DNA from: Nitrospirota bacterium
GTDB taxonomy: Bacteria > Nitrospirota > Thermodesulfovibrionia > Thermodesulfovibrionales > Dissulfurispiraceae
Direction of reading: 5' to 3'
NCBI GenBank assembly: GCA_963710375.1
Contig: CAVPZX010000002.1
Span: 544,001 to 608,000, forward strand
Length of the DNA: 64,000 bases
This document shows positions 7,342-56,821 of this stretch, piece after piece. The stretch's first letter is position 1. Each line of letters starts with the position of its first letter. The translations under genes were made by a program, and so were the position numbers. The notes beneath the pieces are model-generated. The model had not been told where the DNA came from. It saw nothing but the letters and a program-made list of their open reading frames with translations, and searched no databases.

Positions 7342-8054
7342 AGGCGCTTGTTGTCATACCAACTTACAATGAAGCAAGCACCATTGAAAAAGTCCTGACA
7401 ATGACTCTTAATGCCATGAACTGCCACATTCTTGTTGTGGACGACAATTCATCGGACATGACAAGAGATATTGTCAGACGCTTTTTTGATACTGGGGAAG
7501 TCTCTATGCTGGAACGCCACTCAAAACTGGGGCTCGGCACAGCCTATGTGGAAGGTTTCCAATGGGGTCTTCAAAACGGGCATGATCTTTTTTTTGAGAT
7601 GGATGCTGACAATTCTCACAATCCCGACTCCCTTCCTTCCTTTGTCGAAAAGATAAGAGAAGGATACGACATTGTTGTCGGCTCACGGTATCTCAATCAT
7701 ACTATCAGTGTTGTCGGTTGGGATTTTCGCAGGCTGCTGATCTCCAAGTTCGGAAACTGGTATGCATCCACTCTGCTGGGGTTGAAACAATTTACCGATT
7801 TGACTAGCGGGTACAGGTGTTATACGAGTACGGCACTGAAGACCATCGGTCTTGAAACGATACGATCAAACGGTTACGCATTCCAGATCGAAATGGTATA
7901 TCGCGGCTATAATAAGGGGCTAAGAGTGGCAGAGATACCTATAATATTCTATGAGCGTGGAGGCGGGGGATCGAAAATGAACCGGAAGATCGTACGGGAG
8001 GCAGTGATGTTGCCCTTTAAACTCAGACTAGATGCTATCAGGCATCATTTATAG
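7338..8054 (+). CDS. Polyprenol-phosphate mannose synthase (Dpm1/Ppm1-like GT2)
   Basis: IPTYNE, VDDNS, GLGTAY, MDADNSH, DLTSGYR and GYAFQIE motifs. Confidence 0.9.
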   Translation: MKALVVIPTYNEASTIEKVLTMTLNAMNCHILVVDDNSSDMTRDIVRRFFDTGEVSMLERHSKLGLGTAYVEGFQWGLQNGHDLFFEMDADNSHNPDSLPSFVEKIREGYDIVVGSRYLNHTISVVGWDFRRLLISKFGNWYASTLLGLKQFTDLTSGYRCYTSTALKTIGLETIRSNGYAFQIEMVYRGYNKGLRVAEIPIIFYERGGGGSKMNRKIVREAVMLPFKLRLDAIRHHL

Positions 8055-8100
8055 AGAGCCTTCTGCCAAAATTGCCGAAAACCATGGGAAACAGATAACA

Positions 8101-9663
8101 ATGTCCGATATTGTAAACTCATCTTTAAAAACAGCTGCAAAAGGCACTGTAGTTATCCTGTTCGGTACAGCGGCCAGCAACATCCTATGGTTTACCACAA
8201 AGTTATTGATAATCAGAAGTACGACAGTGGACCAATTGGGCATCTATTCTCTGGTGATCGCCATTATCGGCGTGAGCACGCTAATTGCCAGTCTCGGGAT
8301 CCATGAAGGCGCAACAAAATATATTTCCCAGTTCATCAGTGAGAACAAATTATTCGATGCCGAATCCATACGGAAAACATCTGTTCAAATAGGCATACTA
8401 TCCGGTATAACAGTCTGTACACTGCTTATTCTGCTGGCCGCTCCCATATCCAGATTCGTTTTTTGCAAGCCTGCCCTTTCAAGCCCCTTAAAGGTCGCAG
8501 CTCTTTTCATACCCTTTAATGTCATAACTATCATTATCATCTGGATTCTTAGAGGATATGGATTAATCAGGGCTAAGGTATATTATATTGACATAGGGAT
8601 ACCGCTGGTTTTTCTTTTTTTCCTCTCTATTTTCCTTTACTTCGAACTTCCATTTATCAGTATTCTTTATGCTTATGTCCTGTCTTCAATCATTGTACTA
8701 TGTTCGACCGGCTACTATGGATACAGGGCAATTGGATTAAACCCGCTTTCATTAGGTGGGGGATCACACTACTCTTCACTCTTGAAATTCTCCGGCTCTG
8801 CTTTTCTCCTCAGCTTGATGCAGACTATCTTCTGTTGGACAGACACGCTTATGTTGGGAAGATATGCCGGCCCCGCAGAAGTAGGGATATACAATATTAG
8901 TGTCGTGCTTGCCACCATGCTGACGTTTCCTTTTATAGCGCTTGGATTCGTGTTCATGCCTATCGCCGGAGAAATGTTTGTAAAAAGACAGCTGCCCGAG
9001 CTTAAAAGGACATACCAGGTGCTTACAAAGTGGATATTTACAGCAAGTCTTCCACTTTTTTTCATACTCTTCTTCTTTCCCGAAATGACTATAACATTTC
9101 TTTTTGGAAACCGATTTCTTGATTCTGCACTGCCCCTTCGCATTCTATCCCTGGGTTTTTTGCTTCAGACTCTTATGGGAACAAGTGTCGTCCTTATGAT
9201 GGTTGCAGGCCTTTCTCAGGAAATCAGGAATATTTCAATATTTGGAACTCTTCTGAATCTTGCGCTGAACTATATGCTTATCAAACGCCTCAATTTAGGT
9301 CTTGTGGGAGCGTCGGCAGCGACCATGCTTTCCTATGTCACAATCAGCACCATCAATTTAATCATCCTTCATAAGAGATATGGAATCGAACCTTTTACAT
9401 TCAGGTATATAAGACCTGTTTTCGGCTCAATGTTTGTCGGAGTGATTATATACATTATTGCAAAGGCGCTCCCCCTCTACTTATGGATGCTTCCCCTATA
9501 TTTAATTTTATTTATGACCGGCTATCTTCTCTCATTAATATTGCTGAAAGGCCTTGACAGCGACGATATCTCTATTTTTGAACTAATTTCTGAAAAAACT
9601 GGTTTGAAAATGCAAGGCCTGAGAAGCTTTCTTCATTTGCTGACAGTCAAAAGGACACTTTGA
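8101..9663 (+). CDS. Wzx/MOP-family oligosaccharide flippase
   Basis: About 14 TM helices, WTDTLMLG...VGIYN motif; ATG at 8101 preferred over the overlapping upstream start. Confidence 0.85.
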   Translation: MSDIVNSSLKTAAKGTVVILFGTAASNILWFTTKLLIIRSTTVDQLGIYSLVIAIIGVSTLIASLGIHEGATKYISQFISENKLFDAESIRKTSVQIGILSGITVCTLLILLAAPISRFVFCKPALSSPLKVAALFIPFNVITIIIIWILRGYGLIRAKVYYIDIGIPLVFLFFLSIFLYFELPFISILYAYVLSSIIVLCSTGYYGYRAIGLNPLSLGGGSHYSSLLKFSGSAFLLSLMQTIFCWTDTLMLGRYAGPAEVGIYNISVVLATMLTFPFIALGFVFMPIAGEMFVKRQLPELKRTYQVLTKWIFTASLPLFFILFFFPEMTITFLFGNRFLDSALPLRILSLGFLLQTLMGTSVVLMMVAGLSQEIRNISIFGTLLNLALNYMLIKRLNLGLVGASAATMLSYVTISTINLIILHKRYGIEPFTFRYIRPVFGSMFVGVIIYIIAKALPLYLWMLPLYLILFMTGYLLSLILLKGLDSDDISIFELISEKTGLKMQGLRSFLHLLTVKRTL

Positions 9664-47859: not shown

Positions 47860-47949
47860 GCAGGTTAAGGTTATGGTAGAGGTTAAGAAAATACAAAAAA
47901 AATTTCGGGTTATATCTTTGCCTCTACCTTAACCTTAACCTATACCTGC
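47860..47949. repeat. Inverted 6-mer tandem repeat hairpin (AGGTTA / TAACCT)
   Basis: gcaggttaaggttatggtagaggttaag ... cctctaccttaaccttaacctatacctgc. Confidence 0.85.
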
Positions 47950-53415: not shown

Positions 53416-54660
53416 ATGGCGACAAAATTCAAACATATTGACGAACCTGATGTGCCAATCCCGGTCAGGCAGCTGGTCATTGGAACCAGAATGCCCTGTA
53501 ATGTATTTGTAAGAGAAAAAGAAGCTCTAAGGGTCTTCTTTAACAAGGACGACCTCTACACCACAGTGTCAGACAATATCTTGAGAGAAAAAGGCGCTTC
53601 CGAAGTCTTCATACATCAGAGCGACAGCATGTACTTCGACTTGTACCTTGCCGGTAACCGTTCACTAAATAGGGTCAGAAATGCCGACAGCGTGGCTGCA
53701 TTCAAAGAATATTCTTACCGCAAGGAACAGCACCATCAGATCGATACCACCCTGCTTGTTCCCGGCACAGAGATTAATTTCAGCCTCTTTGTCCTGGATA
53801 AGCTGAATTATTCTCCTGTAGTTGAAGCCTCTGACAATTCTCACGCTGTCATAAGCGAAAACATGCTGAACATAGCCGGTGATGTCGCCATAAATAAATG
53901 TGACGTGCCACGCTACCTTGAATATATTTCTGCGCTTCAGAAGTCCCCTGAATTGCTTGAAGGCAACAAAACTAAAATAAGAGCGTTCGTCCTCAAAGAG
54001 ACATCAAAGGCCATATTGCAGAATTTCCTTGCCGACCCAAAGAGCGGCGAGACCATAAAAGAGGTAAGCGGGCTGGTCAATGATATGATCGATTGCATCA
54101 TGGAGGACAGGGATGCAATATATGCATTGCTGTCCCTGAAAGGATACGATTATTATACCTATACTCACTCAGTCAATGTCGCCGCATTATCCATCGGTTT
54201 GGGCGTCGCAATAAATTTGAACCGGGAAGATACCGAGAAATTGGGGTTGGGCGGCATGTGCCATGACATCGGAAAGAGTCAGATCTCGCACGAAGTATTG
54301 AACAAGCAGGGCAGGCTTAACCCTCTCGAATACAATATCATCAAGAGCCATGTCCTGGAAGGCGAGAAAATAATGCGTGAACATAAAAACTTCCCCTCCG
54401 AGTCGTTCAGTGCCATATTGCAGCACCACGAAAAGCTGTCAGGCAACGGATATCCCTACGGCCTTAGCGGGCATGACTTAAACATCTTCGGAAAAATCGC
54501 TGCTATCGCCGATTGCTATGATGCCTTGACAACACGGCGTCCTTACAAAACAGCTTACACACCGTTTCATGCCCTTTCGATTATTTCCAAAGATACAGGC
54601 GACTACGATCCCGACCTGTTGAAAGCTTTTATAAAGATGTTGGGCAAGATACACCTCTAA
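53416..54660 (+). CDS. HD-GYP c-di-GMP phosphodiesterase
   Basis: YTYTHSVNV, HDIGK, HHEKLSGNGYP, ADCYDALTTRRPYK. Confidence 0.9.
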   Translation: MATKFKHIDEPDVPIPVRQLVIGTRMPCNVFVREKEALRVFFNKDDLYTTVSDNILREKGASEVFIHQSDSMYFDLYLAGNRSLNRVRNADSVAAFKEYSYRKEQHHQIDTTLLVPGTEINFSLFVLDKLNYSPVVEASDNSHAVISENMLNIAGDVAINKCDVPRYLEYISALQKSPELLEGNKTKIRAFVLKETSKAILQNFLADPKSGETIKEVSGLVNDMIDCIMEDRDAIYALLSLKGYDYYTYTHSVNVAALSIGLGVAINLNREDTEKLGLGGMCHDIGKSQISHEVLNKQGRLNPLEYNIIKSHVLEGEKIMREHKNFPSESFSAILQHHEKLSGNGYPYGLSGHDLNIFGKIAAIADCYDALTTRRPYKTAYTPFHALSIISKDTGDYDPDLLKAFIKMLGKIHL

Positions 54661-54756
54661 GGGCTCGCGGATAAATCAATTTGTTAAAAAAGAAATTATC
54701 AGGCAATCGGTCAGCAATTTTTTCTATGATCAGATGCTAAAAAAAGGAGGAATAAC

Positions 54757-54868
54757 GTGATACTCGATGATGTCAGGAAGATATCGAGGCAGAAAGGTGT
54801 GAAGACTGCTAAACATGAAGAAGGGTCAAATCATCAGGGCAATCCAGATGTCCGGAGGCTATCAATGA
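54757..54868 (+). CDS. Small Rho-N/SAP-like helical peptide (36 aa), apparently frameshifted at 54811-13
   Basis: Strong AGGAGG RBS; removing one A gives MILDDVRKISRQKGVKTANMKKGQIIRAIQMSGGYQ*, whose TGA overlaps the next ATG. Confidence 0.5.
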
Positions 54869-56226
54869 GCGAACAGTCTGATACGAACACGTGTTTTGCC
54901 CCCATAAATCCGGCGGCATCTTCTGTTGACAATCTTTTGCCTCCAGCAATAGCTCTGAAGGCCGAAAACGTTGGAGTTTTAAAGGCCAACCTCGACTTGT
55001 TTACGCTCCTGACGTTATCTATTCTTGCTGGGGCATTTATATCCTTGGGCTCGATTTTTTTTACTGCGGTAGTGGCTGGAAACGGAGTTGGCGGGTCTCT
55101 TAAACTACCTGTCGGCATTTTAAGGTTAGCGGGTGGGACTGTCTTCAGCCTTGGCCTGATTTTGGTGGTTATAGCAGGAGCCGAGCTTTTTACAGGCAAC
55201 ATCCTGATTATCATGGCTGCAGCCAGTAAAAAAATATCCATCAGGCTTGTGGCAAGAAATTGGGGGATGGCTTACGTCGGCAACATGATCGGCGCCATTG
55301 CAACGGCTTATCTGGTATTTGCCAGCGGCCATTACAAGTTAGCGGATGGCATCATAGGACTGCAAGCATTGGCAATCGCCAGCGCCAAATGCAAGATGCC
55401 CTTTATGGAGGCACTCATCAGTGGGATTTACTGTAACGCTCTGGTCTGCCTTGCCGTTTGGCTCTGCCTTTCCGGTCGTACGGTCATAGACAAAATCGGC
55501 AGTATAATCTTTCCCATCGCCGCTTTCGTCACCATAGGATTTGAGCACTGCGTGGCAAACATGTACTTCATTCCCACCGGTATCTTTATCAAAAACTACG
55601 CTGAACCAGGATTTTGGATAAAGACCGGCAATATTGCCGGCAATTTAGGAAGCTCCTATGAATCTCTTACGTGGAGTAATTTTTTTGTCGCAAACCTCCT
55701 GCCGGTGTCGCTCGGCAATATAATAGGCGGGCTCATGGTCGGACTTATGTACTGGATAATCTACAACCGTCCAAATACTTTAAACTTCGATAACCAAATG
55801 GAATTATTGAAAAAACTTATAGTTGTCGGCAGAAGGAAACACATTCGGTATACGGCGGAAGGGCATGTCACATTACACTCCGATTCGTGTTTTGCCAGGG
55901 GAAAGCTCTTCAATATAAGCGAAGGCGGTTTGTTATGTGCCATTAACAAGCAGGAGACCTACCTTCCCTGCAAGTTGGAGAAGATAATGTGCGATATAGA
56001 AAGTAACATGGAGGCGGGTACGACAATCACGGACCACAAACCTGATAAAATAAAGATTTCAGGCATTAATGCCCTTGTGGTCAACCTCGGCTCGGAAATG
56101 TTCAGTCAAATGACACTGGTATGGGTTTCGATTAAATTTATCAACCTCACACAGGAAAAGAAGAAGGAAATACTGGACTTTATTAAGGCGATACCCGACA
56201 AGGACAAACAAAACGGAAAAAACTAG
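54865..56226 (+). CDS. Formate/nitrite transporter (FNT) with a C-terminal PilZ domain
   Basis: GAELFTGN, CNALVCLAVW, GFEHCVANM, GNIIGG; tail has RKHIR (RxxxR) and NISEGG (NxSxxG). Confidence 0.88.
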   Translation: MSEQSDTNTCFAPINPAASSVDNLLPPAIALKAENVGVLKANLDLFTLLTLSILAGAFISLGSIFFTAVVAGNGVGGSLKLPVGILRLAGGTVFSLGLILVVIAGAELFTGNILIIMAAASKKISIRLVARNWGMAYVGNMIGAIATAYLVFASGHYKLADGIIGLQALAIASAKCKMPFMEALISGIYCNALVCLAVWLCLSGRTVIDKIGSIIFPIAAFVTIGFEHCVANMYFIPTGIFIKNYAEPGFWIKTGNIAGNLGSSYESLTWSNFFVANLLPVSLGNIIGGLMVGLMYWIIYNRPNTLNFDNQMELLKKLIVVGRRKHIRYTAEGHVTLHSDSCFARGKLFNISEGGLLCAINKQETYLPCKLEKIMCDIESNMEAGTTITDHKPDKIKISGINALVVNLGSEMFSQMTLVWVSIKFINLTQEKKKEILDFIKAIPDKDKQNGKN

Positions 56227-56317
56227 CCGCAAATAAATAACTTCCACATTGATGCATCCCTCCCGCCTGCCGGAGTTTTCGAGAAAACCGAAACAGCGAT
56301 TCCGGTATAATAAAGGC

Positions 56318-56821
56318 ATGCAACCATCCAGTCATAAAACAAATCCATCCAGGTATATTACCCCTGAGGGTCGAACACAATTAAGCGAGGAACTCTCATA
56401 CCTCTGGAAGGTAAAGCGCCCTCAGGTCACACAGGCAGTGGCCGAAGCCGCAGCCATGGGGGACCGTTCAGAGAACGCCGAGTATATTTACGGAAAGAAG
56501 CAGTTAAGGCAGATCGATTCCCGCATCAGGTTTCTCGCAAAGAGGATGAGCGAATTGATGGTCGTGAACAGGCCGCCTGATGATACGTCAAAAGTATTTT
56601 TCGGCGCCTGGGTCGAACTTGAGGATTCCGATGGGAACCTGTTCCGGTATCGCATCGTCGGTGCGGACGAATTCGATCTCAAAAAGGGTTTTATCAGCAT
56701 TGATTCTCCCATGGCAAAGGCGTTGTTGCGCAAAACCGAGGGGGAAGAAGTTGTGGTGAGCAGACCCCACGGTACTGAAGCCTTTGTGGTGACATCAATC
56801 CGCTATGAAATACAAAAGTGA
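56318..56821 (+). CDS. greB: Transcription elongation factor GreB
   Basis: YITPEG, GDRSENAEYIYGKKQLRQIDSRIRFL, ISIDSPMAKAL. Confidence 0.95.
   Translation: MQPSSHKTNPSRYITPEGRTQLSEELSYLWKVKRPQVTQAVAEAAAMGDRSENAEYIYGKKQLRQIDSRIRFLAKRMSELMVVNRPPDDTSKVFFGAWVELEDSDGNLFRYRIVGADEFDLKKGFISIDSPMAKALLRKTEGEEVVVSRPHGTEAFVVTSIRYEIQK

Follow-up and report, generated by a model that had tools for sequence, protein, structure and literature searches.

The gating of formate/nitrite transporter (FNT) channels from the cytoplasmic side is debated, with roles under discussion for the N-terminal helix, the C-terminus and PflB. The usual gating partner of FocA is a protein of the PFL family. PilZ domains are known for outputs in motility, polysaccharide synthesis and transcription. 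Within FocA, roles are known for F75 and F202, which form a gate, for T91 and H209, which form a pair, and for K156 (PMC12559229, in part). The same source describes a C-terminus that swivels in cryo-EM together with the N-terminal helix, by which the vestibule is shaped or blocked (PMC12559229). The C-termini of FNT proteins are cytoplasmic, and loss of R280 abolishes formate uptake by FocA (PMC5572259, in part). The C-terminus of NitM, a nitrite transporter of marine alpha-cyanobacteria, inhibits transport (PMC4390861, in part).

The window analysed here, a stretch of 64,000 nucleotides from a Nitrospirota bacterium, contains a gene in which a FocA-like channel domain runs on into a PilZ domain. 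The first-pass annotation had proposed that an FNT channel is joined here to a c-di-GMP receptor domain, and this core of the proposal, with the receptor function predicted, has good support from the fold, the motifs, conservation and selection.

The fusion gene and its channel domain

The fusion gene (P0001) lies at 54865..56226 on the forward strand and encodes 453 residues, counted from an ATG at 54865 with GGAGG 7 nt upstream. This ATG is the likely start rather than the GTG at 54757, from which databases give a protein of 489 residues, because homologs start there. From 54757 or 54865 a single open frame extends to 56226 with no stop between the FNT and PilZ domains, whose junction lies at about 55771. 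This junction is spanned with 0 differences by contigs of runs X4 (55666-56190) and X7 (55645-55837) and with 1 difference by a contig of X2 (55635-55858), X2 and X4 coming from the same study as the possible source run and X7 from a different one; in X3, two contigs leave a 13-base hole immediately before the junction. Cover of the channel gene was low in runs X6, X8, X9 and X11, from which only the X8 joint and loose ends described below were used. Directly upstream of the channel gene, a scan for sigma-70 sites found nothing promoter-like. Composition does not support a recent foreign origin of the fusion gene, with a GC3 of 0.54 in the gene and of 0.53 on average in the genome.

What had first been read from the sequence, namely an intact channel continuing in frame into a tail with two PilZ motifs downstream of an HD-GYP gene on the same strand, agrees with the present analysis in each of these points. 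The frame is bridged by the contigs above and is stop-free between the domains. The channel motifs GAELFTGN (residues 105-112) and GFEHCVANM (residues 225-233) are present, the latter with its central histidine, H228, at 55546. The sequences RKHIR, R324 to R328 at 55834..55848, and NISEGG, N350 to G355 at 55912..55929, both on the forward strand, match the c-di-GMP motifs RxxxR and [D/N]hSxxG at exactly the coordinates claimed. The upstream gene (53416..54660, forward strand, 414 residues) has the catalytic motifs of an HD-GYP phosphodiesterase, that is, the HD dyad, HHE..GYP and RPYK.

The channel domain comprises residues 29-298 (54949..55758, forward strand) and matches Pfam Form_Nir_trans with an E-value of 2.6e-70 and 237 bits against a cut-off of 34.6. 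It scores above the cut-off of TIGR00790 (241.8 against 232.3 bits) and misses those of the FocA equivalog models NF008069 (257.6 against 440) and TIGR04060 (253 against 290.1). Judged by these profiles, the protein is an FNT family member and not a FocA equivalog. FocA is the top match both by sequence (E ~1e-68) and by fold (Foldseek E 2.4e-15, 44% identity), and comparison of the channel model with 9g4d gave a target TM-score of 0.81, in line with a predicted FocA-like membrane fold. F94, T110, K175, F221, F226 and H228 correspond to F75, T91, K156, F202, F207 and H209 of E. coli FocA; L98, V194, A231 and residue 108 correspond to L79, V175, A212 and L89, which also have roles in FocA. F94, L98, T110, K175, V194, F221, H228 and A231 are invariant in all 28 aligned fusions, and residue 108 is L or M. 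By its sequence the pore appears intact, and nothing suggests a dead channel.

Compared with the FocA structures of E. coli (3kcu, 9g49) and Salmonella (3q7k), the fusion shares the T91/H209 pair, the F75/F202 gate and K156, as well as the N-terminal helix (P12, G23, K26) and Y278/R280. Where helix 6 ends on the cytoplasmic side, Y300-N301-R302 (55762..55770, forward strand) aligns with Y278-L279-R280 of FocA. In this Y-x-R element, Y is kept in 28/28 and R in 26/28 of the aligned fusions, whereas the position of FocA L279 holds N, C or D in all of them. The fusion also differs in a five-residue insertion after helix 1 and in a PilZ tail of 150 residues where FocA has a C-terminal end of 5 residues. 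Of the four FocA residues with reported cross-links to PflB (PMC12559229, in part), three (Y25, T28 and K29) are different in the fusion. The fusion channel is presumed to be a pentamer.

Formate, nitrite and HS- had been considered as substrates of the channel. Formate fits the sequence best and is quite probably what is conducted, while nitrite and HS-, which fit less well, are given low and similar probabilities, the latter together with any other ion. Formate is favoured by the likeness to FocA only, because formate dehydrogenase (FDH) genes are near-universal in the order: the genome has three of the selenocysteine type, but of the order's 251 genomes 230 have an FDH and just 16 any FNT, and co-occurrence with FDH was discarded as a guide to the substrate. 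No dsrA was found in this genome, which argues weakly against a role in HS- transport.

The PilZ tail and the fusion family

Helix 6 is followed by a linker (residues 303-321; 55771..55827, forward strand), a predicted helix of low confidence (pLDDT ~45-60), and by the PilZ domain (residues 322-442; 55828..56190, forward strand). The proposed pairing of Pfam domains is clear for Form_Nir_trans and marginal for PilZ, which with a cut-off of 22.5 scored 24.6 bits when the tail was scanned alone but 20.6 bits in the whole protein (residues 323-394). Eight homologs score between 26.7 and 37.8 bits, and each of the 10 fused homologs from the first search has a precomputed PilZ match. Folded alone, the tail was predicted to form six strands and a closing helix (residues 128-140 of the tail) with a mean pLDDT of 81, in a model built on a 22-row alignment that includes 11 unfused PilZ relatives and may be biased toward PilZ; a model from an 11-row alignment of fusions only had the same topology. 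Its top Foldseek match is 5y6g, the PilZ domain of YcgR with c-di-GMP (E 9.5e-7), and a VIA comparison with the same structure gave Z 13.6 and rmsd 3.6 over 119 aligned residues. Among the top 15 rows of the fold search, 14 are PilZ proteins by title and one is an uncharacterised protein, and at rank 16 the score drops to Z 6.9. The sequence profile of the tail recovered no solved PilZ structure, and such structures were reached by the fold searches alone. The idea that the tail is a PilZ barrel is thus borne out by the predicted fold. The tail also satisfies the sequence definition of a canonical PilZ domain, RxxxR plus [D/N]hSxxG, given in the main text of a survey preprint (10.1101/814665), and no hydrophobic segment resembling a membrane span was found in it. 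On these motifs and models, it is a canonical PilZ domain that likely binds c-di-GMP. The aligned length of the linker is constant in the 28 aligned fusions, and RxxxR sits 22 residues past R302, an aligned distance that is equal in 28/28. The models do not fix the arrangement of the two domains, because the linker has low confidence in both of them and the pTM of the full-length model is 0.50.

The architecture census showed a recurrent fusion, found in at least 33 clusters at 90% identity: 11 from the first search, including this gene, 17 from a second and 5 from a third. This is a lower bound, as the second search missed the 10 fusions of the first, and the third recovered 22 of the 28 then known. 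A library at 50% identity yielded 138 matches, which include a representative of the full fusion and a fragment of a tail, and no further channel-PilZ fusions were found in the 19 of these matches that were scanned. The named sources are Nitrospirae, Ca. Magnetominusculus, Ca. Magnetobacterium, Ca. Magnetomorum, Methylotetracoccus and Methylolobus, and in databases the architecture is called plainly a formate/nitrite transporter. A single origin of the fusion is indicated by a tree of the channel part only, which left out one fragment and the five fusions found later and on which 27 fusions are separated from 45 unfused FNTs by a branch with support 100/98. Its occurrence is patchy in the order (8 of 251 genomes; 2 of 3 in the genus), and in all eight of these genomes it is the sole FNT found. 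Outside the fusions, the proteins most similar to the tail are of the REC-PilZ type (31% identity, E 6e-17), and this similarity suggests that the tail originated from them. The PilZ tree has no resolution at the base, and the AU test (p 0.38) neither rejects nor establishes that all tails form one clade.

Conservation within the tail centres on the nucleotide motifs in part of the family. The first 11 fusions have seven invariant tail columns, four of which are the motif residues R324, R328, S352 and G355. RxxxR is kept in 26 of the 33 clusters, and both motifs are kept in 23 if S or G is allowed and in 13 if scored strictly. All 11 members of clade 1 have RxxxR and 10 of them both strict motifs; in clade 2, RxxxR is found in 15 of 22, and the second motif mostly has G for S. 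Loss is centred on a Methylotetracoccus-type subclade of five members, to which the cluster of the cultured Methylotetracoccus oryzae and Methylolobus aquaticus belongs; there, both motifs have largely disappeared but the domain has stayed, and the tail therefore has a role, or persists, without c-di-GMP. Purifying selection acts on the PilZ tail: for the three closest pairs, which have dS of 0.70-1.12 and are the least saturated, most of the remaining pairs being saturated, dN/dS is 0.19-0.27 for the PilZ part and 0.06-0.09 for the FNT part. In the homolog L002, an in-frame TAA, either a true stop or a sequencing error, removes the last strand and the helix.

Proposed gating by c-di-GMP and its alternatives

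Binding of c-di-GMP to the tail probably gates formate flux through the channel in an allosteric manner, to judge from motifs, models and related proteins. This is proposed because of the effect of R280 loss in FocA, the movement of the FocA C-terminus, the inhibition exerted by the NitM C-terminus and the constant spacing of RxxxR. Each protomer of the presumed pentamer would carry a PilZ domain ~20 residues below helix 6; when c-di-GMP binds, the RxxxR switch would become ordered, and the linker helix would be displaced together with the Y-x-R terminus of helix 6. Flux would then change, because the same terminus in FocA is paired with the N-terminal helix and gives the cytoplasmic vestibule its shape. 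The source of the signal would be the general cellular c-di-GMP network, for which the host has 12 GGDEF, 14 HD_5 and 8 PilZ matches, and not from the adjacent HD-GYP gene. As to the sign, there is a slight lean toward an unliganded tail that restrains the channel and c-di-GMP that opens it, over the opposite, as is suggested by analogy to NitM, whose C-terminus is inhibitory, and to BcsA, which is subject to autoinhibition. No PFL-family gene (PF02901) was found in any of 6 fusion genomes that are 88-99% complete, absence having been scored in fusion-bearing genomes only. The fullest version of the proposal, for which the chances seem about even, is that of a pentameric FNT with five PilZ domains whose formate:proton flux would be switched directly by c-di-GMP, the messenger for motile versus sessile life, and which would have arisen once, spread among Nitrospirota (magnetotactic genera included), Ca. 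Magnetomorum and methanotrophs, and taken the place of gating that depends on PflB.

The c-di-GMP-binding PilZ domain might instead face outward as an adaptor in place of PflB, recruiting a component of chemotaxis or the motor, or formate dehydrogenase, with little direct gating. In L003, L004, L142 and L143, all four loci of one subclade, a Cache-HAMP-MCP gene directly follows the fusion, abutting it in three, but these loci count as one event because they are close kin, and no such neighbour is present in this window or at L001, L002, L144 and L117. The kinship of the tail with REC-PilZ proteins also suits an adaptor, as does its C-terminal helix, which in PilZ domains is a known protein-contact surface (10.1101/814665, in part); moreover, a conserved KNLMGR stretch persists in clade 2, also in members whose nucleotide motifs have gone. 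On balance this alternative is unlikely.

It is a little harder still to regard the tail as a captured PilZ domain that is independent of c-di-GMP or decaying, and is retained to aid folding, to stabilise the pentamer or to damp the pore in a fixed way. The motifs are gone in 7-10 of the 33 clusters with the channel intact, the tail has evolved about three times faster than the channel, the L002 homolog is truncated and the PilZ score of this very gene is marginal. Against this, the motif residues are the best-kept tail positions in clade 1, and most of clade 2 has RxxxR.

The first-pass annotation had further supposed that the HD-GYP protein is a dedicated local phosphodiesterase, and conservation of this neighbourhood was the part that failed. 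The two genes are on the same strand with 204 bases between them and no terminator-like site found there, and the prior for an HD-GYP neighbour of a given gene in this genome is ~0.9% by chance (a post-hoc figure). An HD-GYP match also lies 8.8 kb upstream of the fusion on one contig in genome G326, and a GGDEF gene 5 kb downstream of it at L001. However, G326 has 17 HD-GYP matches, and unrelated genes stand between its match and the fusion; in the same-genus genome G386, the nearest listed HD-GYP match is ~139 kb away. Adjacent HD-GYP genes were found at 0 of 8 other fusion loci (flanks of 1.8-8 kb, 88 of 103 ORFs scanned, the other 15 being short, ~200 aa or less), and none of the scanned ORFs contained an HD domain. 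The accompanying genes vary: at L001 they are a glnA region and an SiaABC-like cluster, at L002 transhydrogenase, at L144 a nos accessory cluster, at L117 genes for aminotransferase and 2-hydroxyacid dehydrogenase, and at the remaining four the chemoreceptor gene. The 14 HD_5 matches of this genome include five near-full-length paralogs of the neighbouring gene.

In X8, a contig joins the HD-GYP stop directly to greB (56318..56821, forward strand), a downstream neighbour that has no link to the fusion elsewhere, leaving out the 1620 bases in which the channel gene lies; this joint is a single contig of depth 3.7 from a relative 92-95% alike, at a likeness threshold of 85%. Contigs of X9 and X11 depart from the window sequence at the HD-GYP stop. 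Remnants of mobile-type repeat ends flank the channel gene on both sides, a degenerate terminal-repeat copy of an interspersed element of ~170-180 bp immediately after the HD-GYP stop (54661..54684, forward strand) and a second copy of the end of that element immediately after the fusion stop (56228..56258, forward strand), in which 29 of 31 bases equal other genomic copies. We infer that the channel gene was recently inserted here or was lost in relatives. In both cases the two genes are separable; the HD-GYP gene is likely a chance neighbour, and the fusion is not part of a conserved local c-di-GMP module. A conserved HD-GYP-channel module is thus largely refuted, and a co-transcribed HD-GYP partner that sets a local c-di-GMP pool to gate the channel is very improbable.

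Comparison with known systems

No description of an FNT-PilZ fusion was found in the literature searched, of which most subscription journals were not part, in agreement with the earlier remark that no characterised example was known. The words 'formate', 'nitrite', 'transporter' and 'channel' are absent from the main text of the PilZ survey preprint (10.1101/814665), a statement that extends to neither its tables nor its supplements. Coupling of this kind is not a new category, since control of potassium transport by c-di-AMP and of a pore by the PilZ domain of BcsA are known (PMC10118264, in part). If the proposed gating holds, a PilZ domain on a metabolite channel would place one-carbon and proton flux in direct connection with c-di-GMP. 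Because its switch for a soluble ligand sits at the end of helix 6, this natural FNT would make gating testable by one small molecule and point mutants, for which the motif-less members in cultured methanotrophs are natural controls, and it might be used as a c-di-GMP-responsive formate valve or reporter.

With YcgR, MotI, PlzD, MrkH, Alg44 and BcsA, the fusion has in common a predicted barrel and helix, RxxxR and [D/N]hSxxG, and its tail shares with canonical PilZ effectors a conserved Phe near the last strand (F425). The outputs of those effectors are the flagellar motor, transcription and polysaccharide synthesis, and none was a small-anion channel within the literature searched. BcsA is likewise a membrane protein in which a C-terminal PilZ domain controls a pore (PMC10118264, in part). 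NitM is the FNT in which a cytoplasmic C-terminal extension controls transport, although this extension is a charged peptide of ~20 residues without a known ligand, whereas that of the fusion is a folded, predicted second-messenger receptor (PMC4390861, in part); NitM also belongs to a different FNT branch. KtrAB/CD and KimA are potassium transporters whose ion flux is set by a bound cyclic dinucleotide (PMC10118264, in part), but the ligand is c-di-AMP, the domain is RCK_C and not PilZ, the ion is a cation and not an anion, and the fold is unrelated. The receiver-FNT fusions of 11 loci also place a signalling domain on a FocA-like channel and are uncharacterised like FNT-PilZ. Their switch is N-terminal and depends on phosphorylation, whereas that of FNT-PilZ is a predicted C-terminal c-di-GMP receptor, and one of them, L054, falls outside the FNT-PilZ clade on the channel tree. 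If the gating proposed here is true, the two kinds of fusion together would mean that FNT channels have repeatedly been placed under direct signal control.

Start of the fusion gene and the interspersed element

The gene in which an FNT channel is joined to a PilZ domain (window 54865-56226, forward strand) probably starts at ATG 54865 to encode 453 aa. On the 5' side of this likely start, positions 54757-54870 contain two short frames with a strong ribosome site of their own, apparently what is left of a gene for a small basic protein after a frameshift. Pfam gave no match for the first 20 residues there, and the remnant appears similar to small SAP/Rho-N-like proteins. The database call of 489 aa from GTG 54757 arises because this remnant precedes the likely start.

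An interspersed element of ~170-180 bp with terminal inverted repeats occurs across the genome to which the window belongs, and its ends are found in the window at 54661-54684 and 56228-56258. Among the matches listed genome-wide there are 28 end pairs, 25 of them spaced by 159-194 bp, and the copies are usually flanked by TAA, TTA or TAG. The element is MITE-like.

Neighbouring genes and formate dehydrogenases

In the HD-GYP protein encoded upstream of the fusion, the first 245 residues (window 53416-54150) have no match in Pfam and are common to five paralogs in the genome. Four related loci share a gene for a Cache_3-Cache_2/HAMP/MCP chemoreceptor 3' of the fusion (L003, 9299-11329; L004, 9444-11492; L142, 384-2402; L143, 3265-5289), and in L142 and L143 the fusion is preceded by a molybdopterin oxidoreductase. 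The window's own genome encodes the formate dehydrogenase alpha subunit three times, each gene having a TGA codon in frame where the C-A-R-x-U-H site is encoded; the genes lie on contigs C9 (45926-48590, broken by a frame change near 47865-47890), C6 (107742-110423) and C3 (116391-119564). An ORF near the C6 copy may encode a CO dehydrogenase, judging by its appearance.

Relatives of the PilZ tail and other FNT fusions

The same-genus homolog (L002) carries an in-frame TAA (9174-9176) inside its PilZ tail, beyond which the frame runs on to encode the expected last strand and helix. The nearest unfused relative of the tail is a family of REC-PilZ proteins of ~240-265 aa, frequent in the order of the window's genome (for example, contig C5, 364813-365607; L111, 1902-2621).

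FNT channels are also fused to other domains. Eleven of the 87 FNT ORFs examined are receiver-domain-FNT fusions (L043, L044, L054, L058, L059, L060, L062, L064, L076, L078 and L080), as confirmed by Pfam in three. In Ca. Brocadia (L037, L039, L050) the FNT match covers ~1790 bases, and these genes are perhaps tandem or duplicated. Besides the PilZ and receiver-domain fusions, a third type, in which a C-terminal domain of ~100 residues matches Frankia_peptide (PF14407) weakly and below the cut-off, is found in Chloroflexota (L061, L063 and L075, ~7900-9180).
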